Shown piece by piece: positions 8,538 through 60,533 of a stretch of DNA of 64,000 nt. Made by a program: the position numbers and the translations under genes. Source of the DNA: Thermoplasmata archaeon (GTDB taxonomy: Archaea; Thermoplasmatota; Thermoplasmata; RBG-16-68-12); the NCBI GenBank assembly GCA_035283365.1, contig DATETY010000069.1, forward strand, positions 21,432-85,431, read 5' to 3'. The notes under the pieces were generated by a model. That model saw only the letters and a list, made by a program, of their open reading frames with translations. It searched no databases and was not told where the DNA came from. Position 1 is the first letter of the stretch, and the number at the start of each line of letters is the position of its first letter.

Positions 8538-8589
8538 GGCCGCGAGCGACCCTTCAAGTGGGACGGACGGCATGGGCCGGTGCGAGACG

Positions 8590-19379: not shown

Positions 19380-21524
19380 ATGTCGGGGTATCAGCAGAGG
19401 CTCCAGGGCAAGGTCCGCCTCTCCCGGATCCGCCGGATCCGGAACATGGCGCTCCTCGCACTCGGAGGCGTGACCGCCGTGTTCATCCTCAGCGGCTTCG
19501 CCGCGGAGGGCGCGAGCCTGAAGCCTCTCTACCTGCCCCTCGGGGAGGCCGTCGAGATCGGCCTGATCATGGTCCTCGTCGCGACCGTCCTCGCGATGTA
19601 CTTCCGGAACCTCGAGTTCAAGCACGCCGCGGGGGACAGCCAGCGGTTCCTCATGGCGAAGGAGAGCATGGCCCGTTCCACGGGGCTCGCGATCGCGTCC
19701 GTCGTGTTCGCGGTCCTCCTGTTCCTCCCGATGTCCCCGGGCGTCTCGGGGGGCCTCCTCACGGATCCTCCGACCCCCGTGACCGTTGCAGGCTTCGGCT
19801 CCGGCGAGCTGAACTTCACGAGCCCGGACGGACTCGGCCTGAGCTTCGTGAGGCGGGTCGTCGTGGTCGGCGCCTCGTGGTCCGCGGGAGACGTCCAGGT
19901 CACCGTGTTGTTCGGCGGGCGCGTGATGGGCTCCGGTTGGGTGAACGCCTCGGGGCGGGCCGAGCTGCCGCTCGATGCGACCTCGCGCCTCACGTTCGGC
20001 ACGTGGACGGTCAGCTTCCAGAACGTGGCGAGCGGCTCCGCGGCCCTCAACCTCGTCCTCGAGGAGGCCGTCATGCCCGCCCTCTTCGCGTTCGTCCCGT
20101 TCCTCCTCGTCCTGAACGCCGCCGCGAACGTCGGCTTCTGGGTCGGGGTCCGCCCGATCCGCGAGCGCACCCGCGCGGCCGCCGTGTATGCGGGCGGCGT
20201 CTCGACGACCCAGGAGCAGGACGAGCGGTTCTACGCCGAGTACGCGGCGAACCCCGTCCAGGACATGATCCCGATGGAGCCCCCGCCCCCTCCTCCGGCG
20301 CCCGAGGTGCGGCTCTCGAATCCGATGCCGTCGCCCGTCGTCGCCCCGTCCCTCCCACCCGCGGAGCCGCCCGCGCCCGCGAGCGTCCCAAGGACCGCGA
20401 AGCCGAAGCCCGACACGCCCGAGACGTTCGTCGCGAAGGCGGACGTCCTCGGCTCCGCGGGCCAGCACGACTCGGCTCTCGTCGCGTACGACGAAGCCCT
20501 GCGCCTGAACCCGAGCCACCTCCCCGGCCTCTTGGGACGCGCGAAGTCCCTCGCGGGGATGGGACGCAGGGCCGACGCCCTCGAGGCGTACCGCCGCGTC
20601 GTGACCGCGGACCGTCGAAACGAAGAGGCCCAGAGGGCCATCGCATCGATCCTCACCGGGGAGCGCCGATGGCGCGAGGCCCTCGAGGCGGTCGACGCGT
20701 TCCTCCGGCAGCGACCCAACGACGCGGCGAGCCTCCACCTCCGCGGAGACATCCTGACGAACCTGGGCCGGCGGACCGAGGCGCTCACCGCGTACAACGG
20801 GGCGTTCGCGCTGGACCCGACCGACGAGAACCTGAAGCAGAAGATCGAGGAGGTCCGGGTCGACGTGCCCGGGATCCTGAGCCGGGCCCTCATCGCCTCC
20901 GCGTCGGGCAACTACGCGCAGGCCCTCGGCCTGTTCGACGAGATCCTCGAGATCGACCCCGGGAACGTGAACGCGCTGATCGGGAAGGCGGTCGCGTACC
21001 GCCGCAGCGGGAAGTCCCGAGAGGCGATCAACTGCCTGGACCTCGTCCTCTCGATCCAGCCGGAGAACGCGGCGGCCCTCTACAACCGCGGCCAGCTCCT
21101 CGAGACGAGCGGAGACCTCGAGGAAGCGCTCGAGACGTACGACCGGCTCGTGAGCGTCTCGAGCCTGGACGACGAGGCGTGGGCCGCCCAGGGGGACATC
21201 CTCACGAAGATGGGACGGGACGACGACGCGCTGCGGGCGTACGCGGAGGCCCTCAAGCTGAACCCCGGGGACGAACTGATCCGGGCGAAGGTCCGCGAGC
21301 TCGAGGAGGCCCGCACGGTCCAGTCGGACATCCTGGACGAGCTGTACAAGGTGAAGGGGATCGGCCCCTCGAAGGCGAAGGCCCTCCTCGACGCGGGATT
21401 CAACACGGCGGACGGCTTCGCCCTCGCGGACGTCGACCAGCTCGTCGCGGTGAAGGGGATCACCCGGAAGATCGCGCAGGACCTGCTCCGCCACTTCCGC
21501 AAGGAGAACGTCCAGGTCCGCTGA
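19380..21524 (+). CDS. membrane-anchored TPR repeat protein with C-terminal tandem helix-hairpin-helix motifs
   Basis: 714 aa. The N-terminal ~250 aa hold 4-5 TM helices and a beta-rich loop, followed by a Pro-rich linker (PPPPPPAPE...). About 8-9 TPRs follow (ALVAYDEALRLNP, ALEAYRRVV..., ALRAYAEALKLNPGD). The C-terminus reads VKGIGPSKAKALLDAGF...VAVKGITRKIAQDLL (2x HhH). It starts 7 nt after the priS stop. Confidence 0.8.
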   Translation: MSGYQQRLQGKVRLSRIRRIRNMALLALGGVTAVFILSGFAAEGASLKPLYLPLGEAVEIGLIMVLVATVLAMYFRNLEFKHAAGDSQRFLMAKESMARSTGLAIASVVFAVLLFLPMSPGVSGGLLTDPPTPVTVAGFGSGELNFTSPDGLGLSFVRRVVVVGASWSAGDVQVTVLFGGRVMGSGWVNASGRAELPLDATSRLTFGTWTVSFQNVASGSAALNLVLEEAVMPALFAFVPFLLVLNAAANVGFWVGVRPIRERTRAAAVYAGGVSTTQEQDERFYAEYAANPVQDMIPMEPPPPPPAPEVRLSNPMPSPVVAPSLPPAEPPAPASVPRTAKPKPDTPETFVAKADVLGSAGQHDSALVAYDEALRLNPSHLPGLLGRAKSLAGMGRRADALEAYRRVVTADRRNEEAQRAIASILTGERRWREALEAVDAFLRQRPNDAASLHLRGDILTNLGRRTEALTAYNGAFALDPTDENLKQKIEEVRVDVPGILSRALIASASGNYAQALGLFDEILEIDPGNVNALIGKAVAYRRSGKSREAINCLDLVLSIQPENAAALYNRGQLLETSGDLEEALETYDRLVSVSSLDDEAWAAQGDILTKMGRDDDALRAYAEALKLNPGDELIRAKVRELEEARTVQSDILDELYKVKGIGPSKAKALLDAGFNTADGFALADVDQLVAVKGITRKIAQDLLRHFRKENVQVR

Positions 21525-40392: not shown

Positions 40393-40465
40393 TCAGAAGG
40401 ATATAGATGGGATGGGTAGTCGCGACACCCCTCAGAGCTGACCTTCCCCCGATCAGGTGAGGACC

Positions 40466-43400
40466 GTGTTTCTCAAAGAGATCCAGATGGAGAACTTCAA
40501 GTCATTCGGGCGAAAGATCTCGGTTCCGTTCCTCCAAGGCTACACGACGATCACGGGACCGAATGGCTCCGGGAAGAGCAACATCTCGGACGCAATCCTG
40601 TTCGTCCTCGGGCCGAAGAGCTCGAAGGCGATCCGCGCGGGGAAGCTCACGGACCTCGTGTGGAACGGCGGGAAGGACCGCAAGGGGTCCGACTACACGC
40701 AGGTCAGTCTCGTCTTCGACAACTCGGACCGGGGGCTCCCTGTCGAGGCCGATGAGGTCAAGCTCACGCGGTACGTCGGCCTGAGCGCAAGCGTCGAGGG
40801 CGGGTACAACTCGTACTTCTACATCAACGACCGGAAGTCCTCCCTGGCGGAGTTCGACCAGCTCCTCGCCCACGGCCGGATCAGCGCGGAGGGCTACAAC
40901 CTGGTCCAGCAGGGGGACGTCCAGAAGATCGTCTCGATGTCCTCCGTGGACCGCCGCCGGATCCTGGACAACATCGCGGGGATCACGAAGTTCGACGACG
41001 ACATCCACCAGGCCGAGGGGAAGCGGAAGGAGACGGAGGAGAACCTCGAGCGCATCCGAATCATCCTCGAGGAGATCGAGAAGCAGCTCAAGCAGCTCGA
41101 GGCGGACCGGGAAGGAGCCCTCAGGTACAAGGAGCTCAACGAGCGCCTCTCGACCGCGCGGGCCCAGCTCGCGTACAAGAACCGCGAGTTGATCGAGAGC
41201 CAGATCGTCGGAACGAAGGAGGCCATCGCGAAGCACGAAGCGGACCGGGCGAAGCTCCTCGCGCAGCGGGACGAACTGAGGACGCGGCTCGAGGCCGCCC
41301 AGACGCGTCTCGGGGAGCTCGAGGTCGAGATGGCGGAGCGCGGGGGCGAGGAGGCGAAACAGACGAAGCAGAAGCTCGACGCCCTGCGCATCGAGCGGGC
41401 GCGCGCGACGGACGGGATCGAGACGTCCAAGGAGACCCTCAAGCAGCTGCGGCTCGACGCGGGCGAGGCGTCGAAGGAGCAGGGGAAGGTCCTCAAAGAG
41501 GTCGACGCGCTCGGGCGGGAGCGGACGAACCTCGAAGCCCGCATCGCGGAGCTCGACTCGGCCCTCAAGGAGGCCGACGAAAACCTGAAGGAAGTCGACC
41601 AGCTCGCGTCGAAGAGCGACGCGAAAGTTCTCACGATCCAGAAGGAGATCATCGCCCTGAACAAGAAGGCGGACGAGCTCGAGGACCGGCTCAAAGCCCT
41701 CGTGCTCGAGGGGGACCGGACGAAGGAGTCGATGGTCCGGCTCGAATCGGAGATCGCGCAGCTCGAGGAGTCCCGCAAGACGTACCAGGTCGAGTTCGAC
41801 GACGCGGACTGGCAGCTCAAGGAACTCAAGTCGTCCACGAAGGAGACGGGGAAGAGCCTCCAGAAGCTCCAGCAGGAGTTCTACGGGCGCCGCCGGGAGG
41901 AGGCCGAGCTGTCGAAGCAGCAGACGGAGCTCCAGCAGGCCCTCCTCACGCTGACCCGGCAGTACGCGCAGCTCAAAGCGGAGGCCGACGTCGCGGAGAA
42001 CATGCGGAAGGGCTACTCGACCGCGGTGTCCGCGATCCTCGAGGCCCGCGAGACGGGGACCCTCAAGGGGGTCCACGGGACGGTGGCCCAGCTCGCCCAT
42101 GTGGAGACCCAGTACGAGACCGCGATCATCACGGCCGCGGGGTCGCGGATGCAGGCGATCATCGTGGACGACGACGGGGTCGCGGCGGGGTGCATCGACT
42201 ACCTGAAGAAGCGCCGGATCGGGCGCGCGACATTCCTCCCTCTCAACAAGATGCTCGTCGGGAAGCCGCGAGGCAAGGCGATCCTCGTAGCGAAGGAGTG
42301 CCTCGGCTTCGCGATCGACCTGTGCCACTTCGACGAGAAGTACCGGGACGCGTTCTTCTACGTGTTCGGAGACACCCTCGTCGTGAAGACCCTCGACGAG
42401 GCCCGCAAGTGGATGGGCGGGGTGCGCCTCGTGACCGTCGAGGGCGAGCTCATCGAGGCGAGCGGGGCGATGGTCGGCGGGGACATGGAGAGGACCCAGC
42501 TCAAGTTCGGATCGTCGTCCGCGAGTGAGCTCGAGAAAGTCGCGGAGAAGCTCCGCGAGGTCCAGGCCCAGTCCGAGACGGTCGCGTCCCGGCTCGAGGA
42601 CGTGCGCCGGGACATCCTCGACCTCGAGGGTCAGCTCAAGGACCACGGGAGCCAGACGGGCGCGGTCGACGTGAGGACGAGCGCGCTCGAGGCCAAGCGG
42701 AAAGACTTCCAGGCGAAGCTGGCCGCGAACGGGAAGGACCTCGAGGATCGCAAGAGGCGGTTCGAGGAGGCCCAGACGACCGCGGAGCGCCTCCAGGAGG
42801 ACCTCGCGAAGTTCACGAAGGGACTCGACGAAGTGCGGAAGAAGCGGGACGAGCGCAAGAAGGCGGTCATCGACGCGACGCCCCAGCAGATCGCGACCCG
42901 GATGAAGGAGCTCATGGCCCGGCGCGCCACCGTCGCGGAGGAGATCACGGGACACCGGTCCAAGATCGAGGCGATGGCGGACCAGCTCCGGATCCTCGAG
43001 GACCGGCGGACCGAACTCGAGACCCGAACGGGCTCCCTCGACGCCCAGAGGAAGGAGCACGAGAAACGCATCGACGGATTCGAGTCGGCCCTGGGCCGCC
43101 TCGAGAACGAGATCCGCGGCCTCGAGAAGATGGAGATGCAGCTCGCGAAGAAAATGAAGGACATCCAGGACGCCCGCGACGCCGCGTACAAGGAGAAGAC
43201 GGACGCCGAGGCGGACCTCGACAAGGCGACCCACAAGATCGAGACGAAGGAGGACTTCCTCCTCAAGATGGAGACGGAGCTCAAGGTCCAGGAGGACCAG
43301 CTCGCGGAGGCGGAACGGGTCATGCAGGAGATGGCCGTCGAGATCAAGCAAGGCAAGCTCCCGTCCCTCGAGGAGCTCAGGCGCACGATCAACGAGTCCG

Positions 43401-44053
43401 AGACCCTGATCGGGGCCCTCGGCCCGATCAACCTACGGGCCCTCGAGGACTACGAGGCCCAGGAGACCCGGCACGGCGAGCTCAAGGAGGAGTTCGCCCG
43501 GCTCGAGGGGCAGCGTCAGGAGCTGATTAACCTCGTCGAAGAACTCACCGAGAAGAAGAAGGGCGGCCTGTCCAAGGTCTTCGACGCGATCAACGAGAAC
43601 TTCAAGCGCGTGTACGCGGAGCTCAGCGAGGGAGGCGAGGCGGAGCTCGTCATCGAAAACCCCGACAAGCCGTTCGATGCGGGGCTCATCGTGAAGGCGA
43701 AGCCGCCCCACAAGAAGGTCTTGCGGCTCGAGGCCCTCTCGGGCGGCGAGAAGTCCCTCGTCTCCATGGCGTTCATCTTCGCGATCCAGGAGTACGACCC
43801 GTCCCCGTTCTATCTCCTCGACGAGATCGACCAGAACCTGGACGCGGTGAACGCGGAGAAGGTCGCCCGGATGATCCGGCGGAACAGCCACACGGCCCAG
43901 TTCGTCCAGATCTCCCTCCGGAAGGCGACCATCAAGGAGGCGGACCACATCGTCGGCGTGACGATGACGCCCGCGTCGATCAGCGAGCTCCTCATGCGCG
44001 TGAACCTCGCGGACATCGAGGACGAGAAGACGGTCGAGGCGGTGACCGCGTGA
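40466..44053 (+). CDS. smc: chromosome segregation protein SMC
   Basis: Walker A GPNGSGKSN, long coiled coils, a hinge (GVHGTVAQL...RATFLPLNKM), signature LSGGEKSL and Walker B FYLLDEIDQNLD. I prefer GTG 40466 (MFLKEIQMENFKSFG) because GGTGAGG lies 4-10 nt upstream. The track start is GTG 40457. Confidence 0.95.
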   Translation: MFLKEIQMENFKSFGRKISVPFLQGYTTITGPNGSGKSNISDAILFVLGPKSSKAIRAGKLTDLVWNGGKDRKGSDYTQVSLVFDNSDRGLPVEADEVKLTRYVGLSASVEGGYNSYFYINDRKSSLAEFDQLLAHGRISAEGYNLVQQGDVQKIVSMSSVDRRRILDNIAGITKFDDDIHQAEGKRKETEENLERIRIILEEIEKQLKQLEADREGALRYKELNERLSTARAQLAYKNRELIESQIVGTKEAIAKHEADRAKLLAQRDELRTRLEAAQTRLGELEVEMAERGGEEAKQTKQKLDALRIERARATDGIETSKETLKQLRLDAGEASKEQGKVLKEVDALGRERTNLEARIAELDSALKEADENLKEVDQLASKSDAKVLTIQKEIIALNKKADELEDRLKALVLEGDRTKESMVRLESEIAQLEESRKTYQVEFDDADWQLKELKSSTKETGKSLQKLQQEFYGRRREEAELSKQQTELQQALLTLTRQYAQLKAEADVAENMRKGYSTAVSAILEARETGTLKGVHGTVAQLAHVETQYETAIITAAGSRMQAIIVDDDGVAAGCIDYLKKRRIGRATFLPLNKMLVGKPRGKAILVAKECLGFAIDLCHFDEKYRDAFFYVFGDTLVVKTLDEARKWMGGVRLVTVEGELIEASGAMVGGDMERTQLKFGSSSASELEKVAEKLREVQAQSETVASRLEDVRRDILDLEGQLKDHGSQTGAVDVRTSALEAKRKDFQAKLAANGKDLEDRKRRFEEAQTTAERLQEDLAKFTKGLDEVRKKRDERKKAVIDATPQQIATRMKELMARRATVAEEITGHRSKIEAMADQLRILEDRRTELETRTGSLDAQRKEHEKRIDGFESALGRLENEIRGLEKMEMQLAKKMKDIQDARDAAYKEKTDAEADLDKATHKIETKEDFLLKMETELKVQEDQLAEAERVMQEMAVEIKQGKLPSLEELRRTINESETLIGALGPINLRALEDYEAQETRHGELKEEFARLEGQRQELINLVEELTEKKKGGLSKVFDAINENFKRVYAELSEGGEAELVIENPDKPFDAGLIVKAKPPHKKVLRLEALSGGEKSLVSMAFIFAIQEYDPSPFYLLDEIDQNLDAVNAEKVARMIRRNSHTAQFVQISLRKATIKEADHIVGVTMTPASISELLMRVNLADIEDEKTVEAVTA

Positions 44054-44973
44054 GCGAGAAGGCCCAGGCCGTCCTGAACCATCTCCTGTTCCACAAGGCC
44101 CTCATCAGCGAGCAGGAGGGCGGCGAACGGATCAACCGGTACCTCGAGCTCCTCCAGGAGATCGACCAAGGCCTCCACGTGGCGGTCCGCGACCCGTTCG
44201 AGAAGTCCGCCGTGGCCGCGTTCGAGCTCGTCCTGGACCGCGGGATGGACCCGTGGGAGATCGACCTCGTCGAGTTCACGCGGATGTACCTCGACAAGGT
44301 GCGGTCCGCGGGGGTCGTGAATTTCGTGACCGCGGGCAAGCTCGTCTTCCTCGCCTGGTCCATCCTGAAGCTCCAATCCGACAAGGTCCTCCTGGCCGCG
44401 ATGCCGCCCGAGCCGGCGCCGGACGCGGGAGGTTGGGACCTGGACATGTACCGGGAGCCCGAGGACCTCGACTACAACCAGGCGATCCTCACGGGCCACG
44501 CGATGCCCCTGTCCGAAGCGATCCGGCGGGAGGGACGGCGCGCCGTCACCCTGATGGAGCTCATGGACGCCTTCGACGAGGCGCGGAAGGAGGCGGACGC
44601 CCACGTGCAGCTCGCGGCGCTCCGCGAGGAGGCGCTCCGCAAGTTCGCCCCGAACTTCCACCAGAAGGTCCACGGGGAGGACCTCACGGAGGACATCGGC
44701 CTCACGTGGTCCCGCCTCGTCCAGTTCAACGGAGACGCGGTCCCCCTCCGCGCGATCACGGTCGGGGGCGTCTGGGACGAGGTGACCGTGTTCATGGCCC
44801 TCCTCTTCCTCGCCCGCATGGAGAAGGTCAAACTCTGGCAGGAGGGGTACCCGTTCGGGGAGATCTACGTCAAGCGGCTCTCCTCGGAGGACGTGATCGT
44901 CTCGGAGGACCTCGTGGGCGTGCCGAGGGTGGGACCCGAACCCGAACACGACGAAGAGGCGGTGGAATCATGA
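44050..44973 (+). CDS. scpA: segregation and condensation protein A (kleisin)
   Basis: 307 aa. Its GTG start overlaps the smc stop (GTGA). The ScpA-like region reads DPWEIDLVEFTRMYLDKV...LVFLAWSILKLQS. Confidence 0.85.
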   Translation: MSEKAQAVLNHLLFHKALISEQEGGERINRYLELLQEIDQGLHVAVRDPFEKSAVAAFELVLDRGMDPWEIDLVEFTRMYLDKVRSAGVVNFVTAGKLVFLAWSILKLQSDKVLLAAMPPEPAPDAGGWDLDMYREPEDLDYNQAILTGHAMPLSEAIRREGRRAVTLMELMDAFDEARKEADAHVQLAALREEALRKFAPNFHQKVHGEDLTEDIGLTWSRLVQFNGDAVPLRAITVGGVWDEVTVFMALLFLARMEKVKLWQEGYPFGEIYVKRLSSEDVIVSEDLVGVPRVGPEPEHDEEAVES

Positions 44974-45599
44974 CGGAGAAAGGGCTCGTCGAGGCGGCTC
45001 TCTACTCGAGCGGGAGCGCCCTGACGGTCGAGGCGATCGCCCGCACGACGGGCCTCGACGAGACGAAGGTGAAGGACCTCCTGCGGAAGCTCGCGAAGGA
45101 CTACGACGCGCGGGACAGCGCACTCGAGGTCGCGCAGATCGGCACGAAGTGGGCCATGCAGATCCGGTCCGAGTACGCGGGCCCCGCGCGCACGTTCGCG
45201 CCGCCCGAGATCGACCGGGACGTCCTCAAGACGGCGGCCCTCATCGCGTACCACCAGCCTCTCCTCCAGAGCGATCTGTTCGACATGATCGGCTCGAAGG
45301 TGTACGAGCACACGCAGGCCCTCGAGTCCCTCGGGCTCATCTCGCGGAAGCCGTCGGGCCGATCCCTGGCCCTCACGACGACGCGGTTCTTCGCCGAGTT
45401 CTTCGGGATCAAGGCGACGGACCGCGAGGGGATCCGCAGGCTCATGGCGAAGAAGGCCGGCGTCCCGTTCAAGGAGAAGCCCCCGGAGGGCGCGCCCGAC
45501 GGCTCGGCCGACGCCGCCACGGACACCCCGCCAGCCGCCGTCGAGCTGGCCCCGCCCGCGCGGGTCGCGGAGACCGCCGTCACGGACCCCCCTGCGTGA
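44970..45599 (+). CDS. scpB: segregation and condensation protein B
   Basis: ATG 44970 overlaps the scpA stop (ATGA). 209 aa with winged-helix pattern LVEAALYSSGSALTVEAIA...ALIAYHQPLLQSDL and an acidic/Pro-rich tail. Confidence 0.85.
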   Translation: MTEKGLVEAALYSSGSALTVEAIARTTGLDETKVKDLLRKLAKDYDARDSALEVAQIGTKWAMQIRSEYAGPARTFAPPEIDRDVLKTAALIAYHQPLLQSDLFDMIGSKVYEHTQALESLGLISRKPSGRSLALTTTRFFAEFFGIKATDREGIRRLMAKKAGVPFKEKPPEGAPDGSADAATDTPPAAVELAPPARVAETAVTDPPA

Positions 45600-45631: not shown

Positions 45632-45638
45632 TTTATAA
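45632..45638 (+). promoter_or_regulatory. TATA box upstream of the giant repeat-protein gene
   Basis: TTTATAA lies ~80 nt upstream of GTG 45719. GGAG lies 9 nt before the start codon. Confidence 0.45.
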
Positions 45639-45718
45639 CGTCCATCCCCTAAGATCCGCTCGGAACCTCCAGAGGGACGAGCCTACCGCCTCCCCCTGGG
45701 ATAGCGGAGCCACGGGCC

Positions 45719-48700
45719 GTGAGCGGATTCCTCCGGGACAGCGCGCTGCGTCGGCAGCTCGAGGAGAAGGTCAAGGAGGCCACCCGAACCCGGGGCGTCG
45801 CGGAGGAGGCCCTCAAGGCGGCCCGCGAAGTCCTGGACGCCGCGAAGCGCATCGACGCGGACATCGGGGTGGCCCAGGAGCCCCTCGCGGAAGCCGAGAG
45901 CGCCTTCGGCGCGAAGGACTACAGGCTCGCGGCGGACAAGGCCGCGGAGGCGAAGGAGCGCGGCCAGCGCCTGTACCGCGGCCGCGCGGAGGCGATCGTC
46001 ACCTCGAGCGAGTCCCTCGCGAACCTGGCCCGGAGCGTGGGTGGGGAGCTCGGGGAGGCGGAGTCCGCCCTCAAGAAGGCCCGGGATGCCCTCTCCTCGG
46101 ACGACCTGACCAATGCGGTGGACCAGGCGAAGAAGGCATGGAAGCGCGGGGAGAAAGTCCTCCACGAGCATCTGTCCCTCTCGTTCTCGAAAGCCCAGTC
46201 CCTCATCCTCACCGCGAAGAACCTGGGGCGCGAAGTCGCCCCGATCGAGGACCTCCTGTCCCGCGCTCGGACCGGGATGGACTCGAACGACTACGACTCG
46301 GCAGTCTCCTTCACGAAGGAGGCTCTCGCCACGATCACGGACGACCTCCGCGCGAACCTGGACGGGGAGATGCGCGAGGCGGAGGACCTCATGCGGACGG
46401 CCCAGGAGCTCGGGGCCGACGTGACGCGCCCGTCCGGGCTCATCGAGCGGGCCCGCGGGGACCTCGAGAACCTGGACTTCGAGAAGGCCCGCAACGCGTT
46501 CCGGCAGAGCCGCGGGGAGTCCGAGAAGGCCCTCCAGAAGAGCCTCGACGGGAAGGTCGCGAACTTCGCGAAGTTCCTCGACGAGGCCACGGGCCTCGGA
46601 GCGGAGACGTCTGCGGCCGCGGAACGTTTCGACCAGGCGGAAGCCGCGATCAAGAAGGGCGACTACAAGACGGGAGGCCGGCTCGCGAAGGAAGGCTTCC
46701 AGGTCGTCCAGCAGGCCCAGTTCACGCGGGTGCTCCAGACCGTCGCGGCGTCCCGCGAGAAGTTCGTGGCCGCCATGAATCTCGGCGCCGACGTGTCCGG
46801 CCCCGTCGCGACCCTCAACAAGGCCCGGGAGGCCCTCCAGCGGAACGCGTTCCGCGAGGCGATCGACTGGGCGAAGAAGGCGGACGAAGGGGTCGAGCAA
46901 GTCCTCGGACGGTACCGGTCCGCCGAGCTCAAGCTCCGGGACCTGCACCGGGCCATGGCGGAGGCGGAGGCCCTCGGTGTCTCCACGACGAACGCTCGCC
47001 GCTTCTCGGAGCAAGCCCGGGAAGCGTACCAGAACCGGAACCCGGACGGCCTCGATCGGGCCCTCGGATCCGCACTCGAGGAGCTCCGCCGGTCGGAACA
47101 CGAGCGGACCATGCAATCGATCGAGCAGGCGGAGTTCATCCTCACCCTCGGGGAGCGGAACGAGGCGGACCTCGGGGAAGCCCAGACGCTCCTCGAGGGG
47201 TCCATCGTCGCCGCGAAGGCCCAGGAGTACCGGAAGGCGCTCGACCTCGCGGGGAAGGCCGCGAGCCGGGCGGACGACGGACTGCGTCGCCGCGTGGCGG
47301 ACGGCCTCGCGGTCCTCCGGAACGTCCTGCCCCACCTGGGGGAGGAGGCGTCCACCGTGAAGGTCCTGCTGAACCGAGCGGAGGCGTCCGTGACGGCCCG
47401 GGACTTCGAGGGTGCGTTCGGAGCGATCGCGGAGGCCCGGGGCCTCGTGGAGCGCCGCACGGCGGGACTCGCCTCCCAGGCCGTCGAGGACCTCGGGACG
47501 ATCGTCGCGATGGGGCTCGACCTCGGCGCGGACATCGGGGGCGTCGAGGCCCTGTACAAGGAGCTCAACGGCCACCTCGGGGCCGGCCGGCCGAGCGAGG
47601 TCCTCGCGGGGCGGGACCGGGTGCGGTCCACCCTCGCGACGGCCTCCGACGGCCTGTTCAACCTCGTGAAGAACCGCGTCGCGCAGGCGAGGGACCTCAA
47701 GATCGACATCGAGGAGATGCGGGACCTCCTGAAGCGGTCCAAGGTCGCCCTGAGCATCGAGAACTACCACGAGGGCCTCGGCTTGCTCAGGGAGTGCAAC
47801 GACCGGGCCCGCAAGGCGACCGCGATGTACCGTCAGGCCCAGACGGCTCTCGCGAGCGCGGCCGCGTTCGCCGCGGAGGCGCGCAAGAGGGACGTCGACG
47901 TCGGGAGAGTCCTCGAGATCCTCCTCGAGGGAAAGCGCGCGTTCGAGCAGCTCGACTACGGGAAGTCGATCGATCTCGCCGCGAAGGCCCGCGCGGAGAC
48001 GGGGAAACTCCTCGTCCTGTACACGTCCGCCCAGAAGATCGTGTCCAGCCGGGAGCGGATGGACCTCGCGACGCGCCTCGGGATCGACGCGCCCCATCTC
48101 CGGGACGCCCTCACGGACGCGAAGGAGTCGATGAAGGCGAAGGACTACGAACGGGCGTTGGCGAACGCCCAGCGCGTCGAGCAGGAGATCACCTCCCTCA
48201 TCGGGCAGAGGATCGCATCCCTCCTCGAGGCGACGGAAGCCGCGGTGGGCAGCGTCCAGGGGGCGAACCTCGCGGCCCTGAACGACGAGATCGTGAAGGC
48301 GCGGCAGTACCTTGGGGCGGGCCAGTTCGCGCCCGCGGCGGATGCCTCCCTCCGGCTCAAGGACCAGCTCGACCGGCTCACGCGGCAGGGCGAGGAAGCG
48401 GACGGGGCGATCCGTCGGGTCCGGGAGCTCATCGCGGACGCGGAAGGGATGAACGTCGAGCTCGTCGCGACCTCGCGCCTCCTTGAGCGTTCCCTGCGCG
48501 CGTTCAAGATGGCCCAGTTCGACGAGGCCCTCGACCACGCGGCGCAGGCGGAGGCCGAGGCCACGAAGGAACGGGATCAGGCGATCGCGTCCCTGATGGC
48601 CCAGTTCCAGGAGTCGATCGAGCGGGCCAAGAGGGAGGGGACGGACACTCGGAGCGCGGAGCGGCTCCTCGACCGCGCGCGGGAGTTCTTGCGCGGGAAG

Positions 48701-50206
48701 AAGTACCGCCAGGCCCTGGCCCTCGCGGAACAGAGCGAGGGGGAGGCGGAGCGGATCGGGCTCCAGCAGAAGATGGCGGCCCAGGCCCTCCAGACCGCGG
48801 AGCGGAAGCTCCAGGGCCTCGGGTTCCCGGTCCCTCCGGTGGCCCACGCGCTCGACGAGGCGAAGCGCGGGTTCGCCTCGGCCGACTACGTGAAGGCCCT
48901 CGACGCCGCGATCAAGGCCTCGGACGCCCTCACGGACATCCGGAACGAGCTCGGGGAGCTCCACAAGGCGAGGGACCGCGTGCAAGCCCTCCTCGCGACC
49001 GTTCAGGAGGTCGGCGCGGAGACGGTCAAGCTCATCCAGATCTTCGACGAGGGCGAAGCGGCCCTCCACGTGGGCGACGTGACGAAGGCGCGCGCCGCGT
49101 ACGCGCAGGCGACGGAGTGGGCGACGGGCGTCCTGAAGAACCACCTCCGGGACCTGCTCGCGCGGGCGAGCGGGATCACGGAGACGGGCCGCCGGATGCA
49201 GATCGACCCGACCGCGGCCCTGAACCACCTCGCGGAGGCCCGCTCCCGGATCGAGGCGGGGGACTTCGGGCTCGCGTACAAGGCGATCCAGTCGGGCCAG
49301 CGGATCGCGGAAGTCGCCCTCGGCACGAAGTTGAACGAGGCGATCCTGCAGGCCGCGGACAACGTGACCCATGCGAAGAAGCTGGGCACGGACGCCCGGG
49401 AGGCAGAGGACATCCTCCGGCAGGCCCGCGCACGGATCGAGCGCATGGAGTACGACGGGGCCCTGGAGCTCACGGAACGGGCCCTCGAGAAGGTCGAGTC
49501 CGTGAAGGTCGTCGAGAAGCGGTTCGTCGACCTCACGTACAAGGCGGAGTCGACGATCCGGAACGGGAAGAAGTTCGGGGTCGACATGCGCCCCGCGGAG
49601 CGCCGGCTCGCGGACTCCATGGCCCTCCGGAAGACGAACCTCGCGGACGCAATCAAGGCTGCAGAGGAAGCGTACCGGCTCGGGTGGGACGCCGTCGAGG
49701 AGTTCGCCCCCGCGATGGAGGCGGGCCTCGAGATGGGCCCCACGAAGCTCAACGAGTGGACGGACGCGACCCTCACCCTGATGAACGTCGGGAAGGGGCT
49801 CGCCAAGGACGTCCGGGTGAAGATCCTAGGGGACGCGGAGACGGAGGGTCTCCAAGACGTGCCCGCGGTCCGCGCGAAGGGCCAGGAATCCCTCCGTATC
49901 CGGATCAAGATGACCGCCTCGGGGAGCGTCCCCCTCGCGATCCAGATCACCTCCCACCGCGTGCTCGACGACAAGGCGTACACCCAGGAGATGATCGCGC
50001 AGATCGAGGTCGCGGAGGACGCGATCGAACGGCCCAAGAGGCTCGTCGCGGACCTGGAGACCCGCTGCCCGATCTGCAAGGGGATGATCAAGAAGGGGTT
50101 CAAGGTCCTACGTTGCGGATGCGGCCGCGACTTCCACGAGCTGTGCGCGTCCCGGATCGGTCGGTGCCCCGCCTGCTTCCGTCCGCTCGGGACGGCCGCG
50201 GGCTGA
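45719..50206 (+). CDS. giant cytoplasmic helical-repeat protein with C-terminal beta-sandwich and C4HC3 RING/PHD-like zinc finger
   Basis: 1495-aa ORF, GTG start, with no signal peptide or TM helix. It holds about 21 tandem ~62-aa repeats, a CARDB-like segment (LTLMNVGKGLAKDVRVKILGD...) and a terminal CPICKGMIKKGFKVLRCGCGRDFHELCASRIGRCPAC. Confidence 0.85.
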   Translation: MSGFLRDSALRRQLEEKVKEATRTRGVAEEALKAAREVLDAAKRIDADIGVAQEPLAEAESAFGAKDYRLAADKAAEAKERGQRLYRGRAEAIVTSSESLANLARSVGGELGEAESALKKARDALSSDDLTNAVDQAKKAWKRGEKVLHEHLSLSFSKAQSLILTAKNLGREVAPIEDLLSRARTGMDSNDYDSAVSFTKEALATITDDLRANLDGEMREAEDLMRTAQELGADVTRPSGLIERARGDLENLDFEKARNAFRQSRGESEKALQKSLDGKVANFAKFLDEATGLGAETSAAAERFDQAEAAIKKGDYKTGGRLAKEGFQVVQQAQFTRVLQTVAASREKFVAAMNLGADVSGPVATLNKAREALQRNAFREAIDWAKKADEGVEQVLGRYRSAELKLRDLHRAMAEAEALGVSTTNARRFSEQAREAYQNRNPDGLDRALGSALEELRRSEHERTMQSIEQAEFILTLGERNEADLGEAQTLLEGSIVAAKAQEYRKALDLAGKAASRADDGLRRRVADGLAVLRNVLPHLGEEASTVKVLLNRAEASVTARDFEGAFGAIAEARGLVERRTAGLASQAVEDLGTIVAMGLDLGADIGGVEALYKELNGHLGAGRPSEVLAGRDRVRSTLATASDGLFNLVKNRVAQARDLKIDIEEMRDLLKRSKVALSIENYHEGLGLLRECNDRARKATAMYRQAQTALASAAAFAAEARKRDVDVGRVLEILLEGKRAFEQLDYGKSIDLAAKARAETGKLLVLYTSAQKIVSSRERMDLATRLGIDAPHLRDALTDAKESMKAKDYERALANAQRVEQEITSLIGQRIASLLEATEAAVGSVQGANLAALNDEIVKARQYLGAGQFAPAADASLRLKDQLDRLTRQGEEADGAIRRVRELIADAEGMNVELVATSRLLERSLRAFKMAQFDEALDHAAQAEAEATKERDQAIASLMAQFQESIERAKREGTDTRSAERLLDRAREFLRGKKYRQALALAEQSEGEAERIGLQQKMAAQALQTAERKLQGLGFPVPPVAHALDEAKRGFASADYVKALDAAIKASDALTDIRNELGELHKARDRVQALLATVQEVGAETVKLIQIFDEGEAALHVGDVTKARAAYAQATEWATGVLKNHLRDLLARASGITETGRRMQIDPTAALNHLAEARSRIEAGDFGLAYKAIQSGQRIAEVALGTKLNEAILQAADNVTHAKKLGTDAREAEDILRQARARIERMEYDGALELTERALEKVESVKVVEKRFVDLTYKAESTIRNGKKFGVDMRPAERRLADSMALRKTNLADAIKAAEEAYRLGWDAVEEFAPAMEAGLEMGPTKLNEWTDATLTLMNVGKGLAKDVRVKILGDAETEGLQDVPAVRAKGQESLRIRIKMTASGSVPLAIQITSHRVLDDKAYTQEMIAQIEVAEDAIERPKRLVADLETRCPICKGMIKKGFKVLRCGCGRDFHELCASRIGRCPACFRPLGTAAG
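45791..49708 (+). repeat. about 21 degenerate tandem protein repeats of ~62 residues (~186 nt) inside the giant gene
   Basis: The anchor motif (L)G-x-[DE]-[VIT] recurs at residues 46, 110, 172, 234, 296, 358, 422, 484, 543, 605, 663, 727, 790, 850, 912, 976, 1037, 1101, 1163, 1225 and 1289, with spacing of 58-64. Each anchor is followed by LL..A[RK]..[LF]...[DN][YF]..A...A. Confidence 0.8.
50066..50176 (+). other. C4HC3 zinc-finger signature (RING-CH/PHD-like) at the C-terminus of the giant protein
   Basis: C-x2-C-x12-C-x-C-x4-H-x2-C-x6-C-x2-C, read directly from residues 1450-1486. Confidence 0.7.
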
Positions 50207-55888: not shown

Positions 55889-57184
55889 GTGCGCGGGGGG
55901 CGCCCGCTGAACGAGGACGTCGCGTTCATCCACGGCCAGGTGGACCGCCACCACGCATGGTTCGCCACGTGCCTTCCCATGATCGCCTCCGAGAACGTGA
56001 TCAGCCCGCTCGCCCGCGAGCTCCTCGTGAGCGACTTCGGGGACCGGTACGCGGAGGGCTGGCCGCGGGAGCGGTACTACCAGGGCCTCACGTACGTGGA
56101 CGAGGTCGAGGAGCGCGTGATCGCGCTCGCGAAGCGCCTCTTCCACGTCCGCCACGCGGACTCGCGGCTCGTGAGCGGGACCGTGGCGAACATGGCCGTG
56201 TACTTCGCCCTTCTCGAGTACGGGGACATCATGACGTCCGTGGCCCTGAGCCACGGGGCGCACATCTCGTCCGCGAAGTTCGGCGCGGCGGGGTTCCGGG
56301 GCGTCCACAACGTGAACTATCCGTTCGACGTGGAACGGATGAACATCGACGTGGACGGGACCGCGAGGCTTCTCCGGCAGGTCCGCCCGAAGGTCGCCGC
56401 GTTCGGCCAGAGCGTGTTCCTGTTCCCGACCCCACTCAAGGAGCTGCGGGACGCGTTCCAAGAGGCGGGTTGCCACGTCTGGTACGACGGCGCGCACGTG
56501 ATCGGCCTCATCGCGGGCGGGATGTTCCAGGATCCCCTCCACGAGGGCGCCGACGTGATGACGGGCTCCACCCACAAGACCCTCCCGGGCCCCCAGCACG
56601 GCATCCTGCTCTCCGACTCCGACGACGAGAAGTTCGTCAAGCGCCTCGTGAAGGCCGTCTTCCCCGGCGTCGTGTCGAACCACCACCTCCACGCGATGGC
56701 CGCCCTCGGGGTCACCCTCGCGGAGCACCTCGAGTTCGGCCGCGCGTACGCGGAGCAGATCGTGAAGAACTCGAAGGCGCTCGCCCAGGCCCTCCACGAG
56801 CGCGGGATCAAGGTCCTCGCGGAGAAGCACGGGTTCACGGAGAGCCACACGGTCGCCCTGGACGTCGCCGCGGTCGGGGGCGGCGCGAAAGTCGCGACGG
56901 ACCTCGAGCGGGCGAACATCATCACGAACAAGAACCTCCTCCCATGGGACACGTCCCCCGTGAAGCCGAGCGGCGTGCGGCTCGGGACCCAGGAGCTCAC
57001 CCGCCTGGGGATGAAGGAGCCCCAGATGCGGGAGGTCGCGGACCTGATCGCCCGCGTCGCGCTCAAGGGAGAACCCCCCGCGAAGATCGCCGCCGACGTC
57101 GGGGCGATGCGGCGGGACTTCAACCGGGTGCACTACTGCTTCACGCCGGACGCGGAGGCCCACCGACGCTGGCGGATCACTTGA
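55889..57184 (+). CDS. glyA: serine hydroxymethyltransferase
   Basis: Carries IASENVISP, RYAEGWPRERYYQG and the PLP motif TGSTHKTLPGPQHG. There is no in-frame ATG before IASEN, so GTG 55889 is the best candidate start. It is the last 431 codons of track ORF 54782..57184. Confidence 0.9.
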   Translation: MRGGRPLNEDVAFIHGQVDRHHAWFATCLPMIASENVISPLARELLVSDFGDRYAEGWPRERYYQGLTYVDEVEERVIALAKRLFHVRHADSRLVSGTVANMAVYFALLEYGDIMTSVALSHGAHISSAKFGAAGFRGVHNVNYPFDVERMNIDVDGTARLLRQVRPKVAAFGQSVFLFPTPLKELRDAFQEAGCHVWYDGAHVIGLIAGGMFQDPLHEGADVMTGSTHKTLPGPQHGILLSDSDDEKFVKRLVKAVFPGVVSNHHLHAMAALGVTLAEHLEFGRAYAEQIVKNSKALAQALHERGIKVLAEKHGFTESHTVALDVAAVGGGAKVATDLERANIITNKNLLPWDTSPVKPSGVRLGTQELTRLGMKEPQMREVADLIARVALKGEPPAKIAADVGAMRRDFNRVHYCFTPDAEAHRRWRIT

Positions 57185-57761
57185 GGGAGTCCGCGCGCAC
57201 GTTGAGGAGCACGTCCACGAGGTGGCGGAACCCGTCCTCGACGCCTCGCCCCGTCTTCGCGCTCGTGTACGACCAGGGCCAGCCGCGCGCGTGGCAGAAC
57301 GCGTCGATCTCGGACTCCTTCACAGCCCGGTCCGCCTCGAGGTCCGCCTTGTTCACCACGACGTACGTCGGGACATCGCCCGCGACGGCTCGGATCGAAC
57401 GGGCCCACGCGTCGAGCTCGCCGAGGGTCTCCTCCCGGGTCAGGTCCGCGACCGCGAGGATGCCCTGGGCTCCGTGATAGTACGCCTCCTTGAGGAGCTC
57501 GCGCAACGTCCGGGTGCCCATCACGTCCCAGAGGATCGTGTGGACCTCCACGAGCTTGCTGGTCAGGGGGTCCGTCGCGATGAGGGATTTCTTCGAGACC
57601 TTCGTGCCCAGGGTTGCCACGTACCGGTCGTCGTACTCATCGAGGACGTACCTCCGGATCAGGGACGTCTTCCCGACGGCCGCCTCCCCGGCCATGCACA
57701 CCTTGAGCTTCACGGTGTCCGCCGTGAACACGGGCTCTCCCGGGGCGATCGGCGGGCTCAC
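57177..57761 (-). CDS. Ras/Rab-like small GTPase
   Basis: 194 aa with G1 GEAAVGKT, switch I YVATLGT, G3 WDVMG, G4 NKAD and G5 TSAK. Its GTG start overlaps the upstream stop (GTGA). Its 3' end overlaps the convergent glyA by 8 nt. Confidence 0.9.
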   Translation of the reverse strand: MSPPIAPGEPVFTADTVKLKVCMAGEAAVGKTSLIRRYVLDEYDDRYVATLGTKVSKKSLIATDPLTSKLVEVHTILWDVMGTRTLRELLKEAYYHGAQGILAVADLTREETLGELDAWARSIRAVAGDVPTYVVVNKADLEADRAVKESEIDAFCHARGWPWSYTSAKTGRGVEDGFRHLVDVLLNVRADSLK

Positions 57762-58143: not shown

Positions 58144-59550
58144 TCAACGGAACCTGGGAATTCGGGTCCTCGCGCGACGGGCCCAGTCCGTCCACGCGCG
58201 GCCCCGGTAGCCGCCGCCGAGGAGGGTCCGGACCGCGGGGGCCGCGCGGTCCAGCTTGCTGATCCGACCGTCCCAGTTCGCCAGGGCCGGGCCGTGGGCG
58301 TCCTCGATCTCCTGGACGGCAGCCTGGAGCTGGGGAAGCAGGTACCGCACGTCGCCGCGGGACAGGATCGCCGCGAGCACGACGTGCTTCCCGCGCACGA
58401 TCGCGGCGTGCCGTCCCCCGAACGCGAACTCGTCGAGGGTCGCCTCGCTCCGGAACGAATCGCGCACGAACTCCTGGATCGCGACGAGCATGGACGCGAC
58501 GAGGTCGTCGTCCTTCTTGAGCGCGGGCCCACGACTCTGGTGGTGGATCAGGAGCCCGCTCCGGTGCATGAGGAAGACCTCGTCGATCCGGAGGCGCCGT
58601 TGGCCGAGGAACAGGAGGACGATGATGGCTCCCAGGACGGGCAGGACGAGGGCCGCGAGGGCGGCGAGGAGGCCCTCGGGCGGCACGATGGCGGTCGGGA
58701 GTACGACGATCGCGGCGTCCAGCGTGATCGACGGCACGGGGCGACGGTCGTAGTCCTCGTATGCGAACACGAGTCGGATCAGGAGGGACTCCCCGGCCGA
58801 CGAATTCGTCGGGAGCAGGACCTCGAACTCAAGACCCTGCGCGCTGCCCGAGGTGAGCTCCGGGACGAACAGCGTGAGGTTCGTTCCCTCGTCGATCACG
58901 AGGCGGGCGTCCGGGACGATCGTCACGCTCACGTTCCAGGCCGAATCGGACGCGTCCCGCTCGTTGAACACCTCGACGCGCACGTTCACCTTCTCCCCGG
59001 CCCGGATGGCGGCGAGGAGCGGGTCCACCTCGAAGCGCAGGACAGAGCCCCGGACGTCCACGGCCGCGACGCCCCCAGGAGGCGTCGTGTACGTGCCCCC
59101 GGAGAAGGTCGTCGCGCTGATCGTCGCGTTCGCGGCGCCGACGGCCGCGTTGGGCCCGACGGCCGCATCGATCGTCCATCTGATGGAGCCCGAGCGAAGG
59201 CCCGTACACTCCCAGGACAGGGCCCCGGTCCGGGAGCACTGCGACGGCCCCGTCGCGTTCGACGTGTCCGGGATCAGGTCCGACTCGAAGCTGAGGTTCA
59301 CCCACGCGACCTGGAGGGACCCCGAGCCCGTGAGGTTCAGCCAGGCATTGAACCGGACGGGGTCCGTGCGGCCCGCCGCCGTCGCGTCCGCGACGATCGC
59401 GACGGATCCGCCCGGCACGGCGGGCGACGCCCCGAGGCCGGGCGCACCGGCCGCGCGGGGCCCGGCGAGGACCGCCAGGACGACGAAGAATAGGGCGAGC
59501 GCGGCGAGGAATCTCACGGGATCCCGAATCTCATGGGGACGGCCGCTCAT
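58144..59550 (-). CDS. type I membrane protein: sequon-rich beta ectodomain + TM + cytoplasmic Roadblock/LC7/MglB-like domain
   Basis: 468 aa. It has an N-terminal hydrophobic signal/anchor, 7 N-x-S/T sequons and a TM helix at aa ~293-316. The C-terminal VFLMHRSGLLIHH...DDLVASMLVAIQEFVRDSF...LDEFAFGGRHAAIVRGKHVVLAAILS matches MglB block by block. Confidence 0.8.
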   Translation of the reverse strand: MSGRPHEIRDPVRFLAALALFFVVLAVLAGPRAAGAPGLGASPAVPGGSVAIVADATAAGRTDPVRFNAWLNLTGSGSLQVAWVNLSFESDLIPDTSNATGPSQCSRTGALSWECTGLRSGSIRWTIDAAVGPNAAVGAANATISATTFSGGTYTTPPGGVAAVDVRGSVLRFEVDPLLAAIRAGEKVNVRVEVFNERDASDSAWNVSVTIVPDARLVIDEGTNLTLFVPELTSGSAQGLEFEVLLPTNSSAGESLLIRLVFAYEDYDRRPVPSITLDAAIVVLPTAIVPPEGLLAALAALVLPVLGAIIVLLFLGQRRLRIDEVFLMHRSGLLIHHQSRGPALKKDDDLVASMLVAIQEFVRDSFRSEATLDEFAFGGRHAAIVRGKHVVLAAILSRGDVRYLLPQLQAAVQEIEDAHGPALANWDGRISKLDRAAPAVRTLLGGGYRGRAWTDWARRARTRIPRFR

Positions 59551-59672: not shown

Positions 59673-60533
59673 TTGCTTGACGAGCTGAAGCTGAAGAGAG
59701 AACGCGAGAACGCGGAGGCGGAACGCCACCGCCGGCGGCGCGACGAACTCAACGACAAGACGCGCGAGTGGGTCGCGAAGCGGGACGAACTGAACGCACA
59801 GGTGCGCGGTCTCGTAGAGGAGGCGACCGGGCACCGGATCAAGCGGGACGAGCTCAACGCGGAGGTCAAGAAGGCGAAGGAGGAGCGGGACATCTGGAAC
59901 CGCAACCGGAACGAACTCCTCGACAACCTCAACGAGGTGAAGCGGCGGAAGCTCCCGCGGGGCGCGATCCCCGTCGGGAAGCTCAAACGAGACCTGAAGG
60001 CCCTCGAGTTCAGGCAGATGACCTCCGTCCTCACGGTGGACAAGGAGCGCGCGCTCATCGAGGAGATCCAGCGCCTCCAGGCCGAGGTGAAGCGGCTCGA
60101 GAAGTCCCTCGAGGAGAACGAAGAGGTGAAGGCCTTGATCGCCACGCTGAAGGACGCGGAGGACCGGGCCGAGGCGGCCCACCGCCGGGTCGGGCAGCTC
60201 GCGGAGCAGGCCCAGGCGGAGCACGACCTGATGACCAGCCTGTACGAACAGTCCGACGAGCTCCGCCGGCAGGCGGACAACGCCCAGGAGGAGTTCATCA
60301 AGACGAAGATGCTCGCGGACGAGGAGCACCGGAAGCACATCGAGCACATCCGCCAGGTCCACGACTACGACAAGATCGTGCAGGGGATCTGGCTGAAGGA
60401 GCGCACGACGACGGGCGTGGAGGAGGAGGTCGACGCGAGGCGCCAGGCCGAGGAGATCTTCGAGCGCTTCAAGAAAGGGGAGAAGCTCTCCACGGAGGAT
60501 CTCATGACCCTCCAGAAGAGCGGGTACCTTTGA
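59673..60533 (+). CDS. archaeal coiled-coil protein (COG1340-like)
   Basis: 286 aa, TTG start, heptad-rich and highly charged (KRDELNAQV..., KRDELNAEVKKAKEERD...). CTTTATAT lies at 59614-59621. Confidence 0.7.
   Translation: MLDELKLKRERENAEAERHRRRRDELNDKTREWVAKRDELNAQVRGLVEEATGHRIKRDELNAEVKKAKEERDIWNRNRNELLDNLNEVKRRKLPRGAIPVGKLKRDLKALEFRQMTSVLTVDKERALIEEIQRLQAEVKRLEKSLEENEEVKALIATLKDAEDRAEAAHRRVGQLAEQAQAEHDLMTSLYEQSDELRRQADNAQEEFIKTKMLADEEHRKHIEHIRQVHDYDKIVQGIWLKERTTTGVEEEVDARRQAEEIFERFKKGEKLSTEDLMTLQKSGYL

Follow-up and report, generated by a model that had tools for sequence, protein, structure and literature searches.

Among described proteins built of tandem helical repeats, two kinds come closest to the one presented here: the tetratricopeptide repeats (TPR; Pfam clan CL0020), all-helical arrays with a period of 34 residues, and spectrin, alpha-actinin and bacterial EzrA, in which a helix runs on from one three-helix bundle into the next to give a rod of defined length. 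Both bear on a gene from the Thermoplasmata, abundant and mostly uncultured archaea. The gene lies in a stretch of 64,000 nucleotides, called the window below, which covers positions 21,432 to 85,431 of the forward strand of contig DATETY010000069.1 (GenBank assembly GCA_035283365.1), and it encodes a giant protein of 1495 residues. In the reading favoured here, to which we give a probability of roughly 0.6, this protein is a scaffold in the form of a fixed-length rod, made of a TPR-derived 62-residue repeat and bearing conserved docking patches and a head that combines an Ig-like domain with a RING-type zinc finger, and it is expressed independently of the smc-scpA-scpB operon that precedes it. 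The gene and the parts of its product are as follows, in window coordinates.

45719-50206, + strand: coding sequence with a GTG start; 1495 residues, 163 kDa, isoelectric point 6.2, without signal peptide or transmembrane segment.

45728-45793, + strand: residues 4-25, the N-terminal half of the first long helix, which has no partner short helix.

45794-49711, + strand: residues 26-1331, 21 tandem repeats of about 62 residues (R1 to R21), from autocorrelation, hidden Markov model (HMM) and AlphaFold2 secondary structure.

48734-48778, + strand: residues 1006-1020 (SEGEAERIGLQQKMA), part of the long helix that connects R16 with R17; the second most conserved stretch and a candidate docking site.

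49715-50014, + strand: residues 1333-1432, approximately; Ig-like, CARDB-like beta-sandwich, from AlphaFold2 strands, Foldseek and sub-threshold Pfam matches.

50066-50176, + strand: residues 1450-1486 (37 residues), a binuclear C4HC3 zinc finger, RING-type and Prok-RING_1-like.

The open reading frame (ORF) has a GC content at third codon positions of 0.94, as in the other real genes of the window (about 70% GC), and its orthologues begin identically, with MSGYLRD. An antisense ORF of 1229 codons (45683-49372) was set aside as a high-GC artefact. No transmembrane segment is found in the protein, whose Kyte-Doolittle maximum over 19 residues is 1.23, in keeping with the cytoplasmic location proposed in a first-pass annotation made from the sequence.

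That annotation had also described 21 repeats with a period of 58-64 residues, and the count and the period both hold. Autocorrelation of residues 26-1331, scored with BLOSUM62, peaks at lag 62 (-0.04) and lag 124 (-0.33); the first of these peaks is far higher than the maxima taken over all lags from 20 to 199 in 1000 composition-preserving shuffles, which average -0.51 (standard deviation 0.025) and never rise above -0.37. Stacked on the 21 anchors of the first-pass annotation, the sequence lets its repeats be recognised by eye, and an HMM built from these anchors finds 21 contiguous, non-overlapping matches across residues 28-1328, with a spacing of 58-64. Because a model made from and searched on its own units is circular, a leave-one-out test was run; in it, scores of 12.6-41 bits were reached by 18 of the 21 units, whereas shuffled units attained no more than 9.2 bits; the weak ones are R7 (7.1 bits), R10 (6.8 bits) and R14 (2.0 bits), and R7 and R10 keep the usual helix pattern in the AlphaFold2 model despite their weak sequence scores. 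The repeats start at residues 26, 90, 152, 214, 276, 338, 402, 464, 523, 585 and 643 (R1 to R11) and at residues 707, 770, 830, 892, 956, 1017, 1081, 1143, 1205 and 1269 (R12 to R21). They share the loose consensus xxAxxLGxDxxxxxxxLxxAxxAxxxxDxxxAxxxAxxA, which is real, whereas not a single unit matches literally the strict motif that was first written for them. At the DNA level no tandem repeat of 186 nucleotides (nt) is present in the array, which must therefore be old and diverged; this absence, together with the conservation of repeats at the same position in distant relatives, excludes a recently expanded or unstable array.

The secondary structure is as regular as the sequence. AlphaFold2, run on an alignment of 45 homologues, gives models of residues 1-620 and of residues 1160-1495 whose predicted local distance difference test (pLDDT) scores are 89.9 and 89.6, respectively, and in which DSSP assigns a strictly periodic pattern: an unbroken helix of 39-41 residues, a 5-residue loop, a helix of 13-15 residues and a 3-residue turn. 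Each repeat as delimited above thus comprises the end of a long helix, the loop carrying LGxD, the short helix of 15 residues, the turn and the start of the next 39-residue helix. The first long helix spans residues 4-44, and the final one, ahead of the beta domain, has half the usual length (21 residues). With one short and one long helix per period, the long helix would be common to neighbouring bundles and the unit is not self-contained; and the loops are so short that the short helix should fold back on the end of the long helix, with the next long helix starting beside it. These helix and loop lengths imply that small three-helix bundles follow one another in a chain and that continuous helices run between them, a connectivity like that of spectrin. 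On such a model, each repeat would advance by roughly 24 residues (about 36 Å), and 21 repeats, if straight, would extend for some 60-80 nm. The predicted template modelling score (pTM) of 0.45 fits an elongated object.

The kinship of the repeat was approached from several sides. In the whole window protein Pfam finds nothing at E<=0.01, and in its three repeat-bearing thirds nothing meaningful for the repeats, and no TPR model, even at E<=10; a search of PDB sequences with phmmer returns weak RING matches only. A 62-position profile of the repeat, however, matches consensus TPRs: its positions 17-53 fall into register with their helix A, turn and helix B, and the structures matched are 9qhb (E 1e-45), CTPR3 1na0 (E 4e-10) and, weakly, HOP TPR2A (E 2e-4) and PP5. 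On the match to TPR designs, the short helix would be the counterpart of TPR helix A, and the first part of the long helix that of helix B. Alignment by hhalign with natural TPR units of Thermoplasmata is weak (22% probability over 24 columns) and has the expected register, and among 32 diverse family members the TPR-clan model ANAPC3 matches nine and TPR_2 one. As modelled, the unit is a TPR-like hairpin in which helix B is lengthened by about 25 residues, an extension that would lead to a staggered rod instead of a stacked solenoid; the 39-residue helix B and the short loops would argue against a side-by-side, right-handed superhelix, and the repeat model has Foldseek TM-scores of only 0.07-0.10 to TPR solenoids.

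An ordinary TPR is ruled out by the period of 62 and not 34, by the hhalign result and by the missing Pfam TPR match beside a working internal control, the canonical TPR protein encoded at 19380-21524 of the window, which scores E 2e-40. Two relatives (P0188 and P0230) contain both kinds of array in one polypeptide, the canonical TPRs (E 1e-114) and the 62-residue repeats lying in different regions. The first-pass annotation had likened the unit to a TPR/MIT-like bundle that belongs to no named class; the resemblance to TPR and the lack of a class stand, given the matches to TPR designs, the period of 62 and the silence of the Pfam TPR models, while the idea of a bundle complete in each unit does not. 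A spectrin repeat is likewise rejected as homology, given the 62-residue unit and the absence of a Pfam spectrin match, and is an analogy only, convergent at best; in Foldseek, EzrA (4uxv) falls short of significance, with E 6.6 and TM 0.13. A further lead is YfdX (PF10938, cut-off 26.6 bits), which has no Pfam match in the window protein and matches five of the 32 family members at E<=0.01. In one distant repeat protein (P0249) residues 973-1082, about 1.7 repeats of 62-66 residues, score 39.2 bits, above the cut-off, and P0239 was also matched; a search for the YfdX similarity against PDB sequences gave no result. A remote relationship of bacterial YfdX to the 62-residue repeat is possible on these sequence matches. 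Searches of the literature on the protein, on Prok-RING and on spectrin-like proteins in Thermoplasmatota found nothing relevant, and both the repeat class and the family, which have no Pfam model and whose copies are all annotated as hypothetical, appear undescribed.

A word-indexed search yielded 202 relatives of the window protein; among the matches listed, which are 86-44% identical to it, nearly all have 1493-1517 residues, and they come from metagenome-assembled genomes (MAGs) labelled Thermoplasmata, Methanobacteriota or Euryarchaeota RBG_16_67_27, in which every one is called 'hypothetical'. The first-pass annotation had proposed that a profile of the repeat be run against archaeal proteomes, and a search with such a profile shows that the protein is not a one-off but one of a family that extends throughout the Thermoplasmata. 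When 1.84 billion cluster representatives were searched, the profile matched 1711 proteins at E<=1e-3, and at E<=1e-30 it matched 160; since it also matches TPR designs, the weak tail of the 1711 may include plain TPR proteins. The strong matches comprise proteins of about 1450-1620 residues with 18-22 repeats, Ig domain and finger, proteins of about 1434-1445 residues that terminate at the Ig domain, and giants of 2000-7274 residues with up to 49 repeats and a period that is often 66 residues. All named members of the repeat family are from MAGs of uncultured Thermoplasmata/Thermoplasmatota. Elsewhere the repeat is combined with canonical TPR arrays, beta-propellers, PKD/Ig domains, a kinase and zinc ribbons, and it is, to judge by these combinations, a modular building block.

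Within the giant family proper, length is nearly constant (1434-1624 residues), and there is one copy per locus; neighbouring proteins of 1650 residues (locus L010) and 1503 residues (L059) were considered as second members and are unrelated. Members that are only 19-25% identical to the window protein are collinear with it from end to end. Repeats at the same position score higher against each other (diagonal means 48-75) than repeats at different positions (36-42), and for 4-12 of the 21 units the best match is the one at the same position, where about one would be expected by chance. It follows that the 21-repeat array is ancestral and that its repeats are individually distinct. The retention of repeat number, of order and of position-specific sequences suggests that the array is a ruler, or a platform whose docking sites are distinct, and not a generic polymer. 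A conservation scan points to where such sites may be: the most conserved stretch of the family is residues 9-23, in the unpaired N-terminal half-helix, which was also the stretch chosen as search pattern in the metagenome scan; residues 1006-1020 follow, with Q1016 invariant in two alignments of 41 and of 32 diverse members; and repeat 6 is also among the best-conserved stretches. All three exceed the zinc finger.

The C-terminal end carries the two domains that the first-pass annotation had expected after the repeats, a CARDB/beta-sandwich-like segment and a zinc finger, and both are borne out. For the sandwich, AlphaFold2 predicts strands and Foldseek returns Ig-like matches with a probability of 1.0 and E values of 1e-5 to 1e-4, to TRAP subunits, the CARDB structure 3idu, adaptin ear and ASH/PapD. 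Pfam CARDB (PF07705) matches the window copy weakly (E 2.6e-3, 18.4 bits, below the cut-off of 22.7) and seven of 32 family members at E<=0.01. A short linker, modelled at low confidence, separates the sandwich from the zinc finger, whose pattern is C1450-x2-C-x12-C-x-C-x4-H-x2-C-x6-C-x2-C1486. Its eight ligands are invariant in 43 diverse family sequences and have the spacing of a RING cross-brace, taken as C-x2-C-x(9-39)-C-x(1-3)-[HC]-x(2-4)-[HC]-x2-C-x(4-48)-C-x2-C, so that the finger can be named more specifically as RING-type, of the Prok-RING_1 kind. Among the 43 fingers, Pfam matches Prok-RING_1 in 42 (E<=0.1, best 1.2e-16), zf-RING_2 in 39 and C1 in 28, and the PHD models match fewer than either of the first two. 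Prok-RING_1 (PF14446) is found in 20 of 32 full-length members at E<=0.01, and the window finger scores 22.9 bits against it (E 8e-5), below the cut-off of 29.1. A profile of the finger matches the RING-H2 domain of Arkadia/RNF165 across its full length with E of about 1e-6.

Most members outside the clade of the window protein continue past the finger into a tail (ending, for example, in KKKLALKIG), which in P0127, P0128, P0164, P0170 and others is made up of a low-complexity linker, which varies, then a Lys/Arg run and, at the very end, [KR][KR]-[LV]-[AS]-L-K-[IL]-(G). This tail may serve in membrane targeting or may be bound as a peptide by a protein partner. The window protein, which ends in CFRPLGTAAG, and its clade have no tail.

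Expression of the gene seems to be governed by signals of its own.

45632-45638, + strand: TATA box TTTATAA, about 80 nt before the start codon, read from the sequence.

45706-45709, + strand: Shine-Dalgarno-like element GGAG, 9 nt 5' of the GTG, inside the conserved AGCGGAGC.

The TATA box is at exactly the position given in the first-pass annotation. A TATA-like element with the same spacing occurs in loci L001-L007, whose proteins are 44-64% identical to that of the window, and AGCGGAGC is kept 8-12 nt 5' of the start in seven of seven orthologous loci. Since TTTATAA and AGCGGAGC are conserved in these seven loci, the giant-protein gene is predicted to have its own archaeal promoter and a 5' untranslated region (UTR) of about 55 nt. 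A GGGACG(A) motif at about 45668-45684 of the window, approximately 40 nt 5' of the start and at the same position in L001-L004, sits just downstream of the predicted transcription start, within this UTR, and may be a regulatory or structural element. Rfam finds no RNA gene in the window.

Put together, these observations would make the giant protein a soluble, elongated scaffold and a conserved component of Thermoplasmata cells. It would be transcribed from its own conserved promoter, separately from scpB; its chain of three-helix bundles would form a rod of fixed length, the N-terminal half-helix, repeat 6 and the R16/R17 junction could serve as docking patches, and the C-terminal Ig and RING-type module would act as a partner-binding head.

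The nature of the head evokes a different role, which we consider unlikely: that of a giant RING-type E3 ligase, or an adaptor, of ubiquitin-like (Ubl) conjugation in Thermoplasmata, in which the finger would bring in an E2 or E2-like protein and the task of the rod would be to bind substrates or to position the ligase. Apart from being of RING type, the finger has Cys2 preceded by a hydrophobic residue and Cys7 followed by Pro, as in E2-binding RINGs; but it lacks the Trp-containing helix, Gly replaces the basic linchpin in most members, the C1 and PHD models match it too, so that it may be a general binding module, and three subfamily representatives have no finger at all. Genes of the Prok-RING_1 kind are reportedly neighbours of Ubl, E1, E2 or JAB genes, as Pfam and Burroughs in 2011 are said to describe them. 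Here, a Ubl domain fused to a UBC/E2 fold is encoded divergently and directly upstream of the giant gene in two loci from distant lineages, L012 (1552-2238, - strand) and L016 (1-648, - strand), whose giant proteins are 40% identical and whose fusions are 31% identical (tblastn E 2e-36). Both fusions keep the HPN motif and have lost the catalytic Cys, and are hence UEV-like; a small gene for a CDC48_N domain adjoins the fusion of L012. Searches with the fusions show that Thermoplasmata, including a Methanomassiliicoccus MAG, also encode E2s of about 170 residues with an intact HPN...C, and a contig of Thermoplasmata type (L059, 9715-11096, + strand) carries an operon of a 93-residue Ubl, an E2 with intact HPN...C and a JAB peptidase. 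In the Ubl of that operon the Gly-Gly is internal, with a C-terminal extension after it, and neither an E1 nor a RING gene is adjacent to the operon.

Such neighbours are nevertheless found in only two of about 58 loci. In the window, Pfam detects no E1, E2, Ubl or JAB among 48 of the 49 predicted genes (all except the ORF at 8580-10928), and tblastn finds no homologue of the fusion over the whole 64 kb, nor in the loci other than L012 and L016. The RING-type head as a candidate partner of a Ubl system is therefore a weak hint. Slightly more doubtful than the ligase itself is the bolder proposal that Thermoplasmata possess a hitherto unrecognised cytoskeleton-like rod, tens of nanometres long, of spectrin-like connectivity and built from a new TPR-derived 62-residue repeat, and that its RING-type head provides the E3 or adaptor which their Ubl-E2-JAB cassettes lack; if true, an E3 that is both giant and structural would exist beyond eukaryotes and Asgard/Aigarchaeota.

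The position of the gene raises the question of a tie to chromosome organisation, since the genes that precede it are those of a condensin-like complex.

40457-45599, + strand: smc-scpA-scpB operon (Pfam), context only, directly 5' of the giant gene.

40457-44053, + strand: smc.

44050-44973, + strand: scpA.

Up to 45599, + strand: scpB.

The mechanical ORF of scpB (44253-45599, + strand) has 448 codons, as an upstream in-frame GTG overlaps scpA; homologues have 165-203 residues and the tblastn match begins at 44985, so the real start is at about 44985. On the other side of the giant gene, and convergent with it, lies a gene for an aromatic amino acid (histidine) ammonia-lyase (HAL). An accessory factor of SMC-ScpAB, a long rod that would aid the complex, is a quite improbable role, although the giant gene follows scpB on the same strand after only 119 nt and the rod, on the lengths estimated above, would be of the same order as SMC arms. 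Among 58 loci collected and scored by tblastn, scpB is immediately upstream in 28, which belong to one clade; their giant proteins are 31-65% identical to that of the window and most share HAL, the adjacency reaching down to 31% giant-protein and 49% SMC identity in L028, where HAL was not detected. In L001 and L004, however, whose proteins are 64% identical, scpB is not upstream, and L004 has a divergent gene of 545 codons instead; and of the 17 loci whose giant protein is at most 30% identical and whose upstream sequence spans at least 2 kb, none has smc, scpA or scpB nearby.

Ten of these 17 distant loci have cgi121 upstream, and others have unrelated genes. This KEOPS subunit gene is directly upstream of the giant gene, on the same strand, in L013, L053, L054, L056, L057 and L058, and lies 2-3 kb upstream, again on the same strand, in L014, L037, L040, L041, L044, L049 and L055; the adjacency is a second clade-specific synteny without obvious functional meaning. 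Downstream, most loci of the scpB clade keep HAL, MBL-fold and SAM synthetase genes, and as the downstream genes are conserved too, the whole region is syntenic. This distribution and the separate promoter, with its conserved TATA box and ribosome-binding site, lead us to reject membership in the SMC operon, and no DNA-binding domain is detected in the window protein. The linkage of scpB to the giant gene looks like clade-limited conserved gene order and not a functional operon, as the first-pass annotation had allowed in calling it perhaps positional only. In a related Thermoplasmata lineage (L006, 4272-8441; L007, 2057-6226) the SMC gene has 1389 codons, and its N-terminal SMC head domain is interrupted by an intein (Pfam Intein_splicing).

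Equally improbable is an element of a membrane skeleton, a rod anchored to the inner membrane face through its zinc finger, with the polybasic tail as a further anchor in most lineages, to give spectrin-like support: the helix connectivity, the Lys/Arg run with its hydrophobic-alternating end in most members outside the window's clade and the match of the lipid-binding C1 models to 28 of the 43 fingers are in its favour, but the window protein and its clade have no such tail, which elsewhere might just as well be bound as a peptide by a protein partner, the likeness to C1 is weaker than that to Prok-RING_1 or RING, and the conserved neighbourhoods hold no membrane protein partner.

Several points weigh against the fixed-length rod scaffold itself. 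The word 'scaffold' names a shape and not a demonstrated activity, and a pTM of 0.45 leaves the long-range shape uncertain. The AlphaFold2 models span only residues 1-620 and 1160-1495. A Foldseek search of the PDB with the 620-residue repeat model gives no match at E<=0.001, the best being designed repeat proteins at E 0.066 and TM of about 0.1, so the architecture has no solved precedent. Finally, L028, whose giant protein is 31% identical, is the only locus in which scpB adjoins the giant gene without detectable HAL, which makes a functional tie to SMC specific to that clade conceivable.

Elsewhere in the window, a small GTPase of the Ras/Arf/Roc family is encoded at 57177-57761 (- strand), adjoining genes for a 468-residue protein without a Pfam match (58144-59550, - strand) and for a DUF7121 protein (59673-60533, + strand); the GTPase recurs in the syntenic regions of L005 and L006, and the DUF7121 gene also in L006. 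The canonical TPR protein at 19380-21524 (+ strand) has 714 residues and ends in a helix-hairpin-helix, and its gene follows that of the primase small subunit (18086-19372); this fusion beside primase may be of interest in itself.

A protein of 163 kDa whose length and repeat number are nearly constant across a class is likely to have a basic role, yet all of its copies are annotated as hypothetical. If the predicted geometry is right, the family represents a new way to make a long, rigid rod from a TPR-like hairpin, which matters for the evolution of repeat proteins and for their design. The RING-type head, the Ubl-E2-like neighbours and the Ubl-E2-JAB operons bear on the reach of archaeal ubiquitin-like signalling. 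For annotation, the SMC neighbourhood offers no basis for naming the giant-protein gene.

Comparison with known systems places each part of the protein near a familiar one and apart from it. With Prok-RING_1 and the RING-H2 E3 ligases, the finger shares the eight cross-brace ligands as well as the residues before Cys2 and after Cys7 noted above; it differs from RING-H2 in being C4HC3 and not C3H2C3 and in its loop 2, which is four residues shorter (6 residues) and has no conserved Trp, and many RING E3s have a basic linchpin after Cys8 where most family members have Gly. The beta domain has the predicted seven-to-nine-strand sandwich of CARDB and other Ig-like domains; CARDB, however, is typically extracellular, whereas this copy is cytoplasmic and lies between a helical rod and a zinc finger. 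With spectrin, alpha-actinin and EzrA, the array would share helices continuous between three-helix bundles and a rod of defined length, but the spectrin repeat (PF00435) is a unit of about 106 residues and has neither Pfam nor sequence likeness to the 62-residue repeat. With TPR, the array has in common its all-helical tandem repeats and a likely role as protein-binding scaffold; it differs in its period, 62 residues (58-64) in place of 34, and in a helix B of 39 residues that bridges into the next unit, so that the array should advance along the helix axis.

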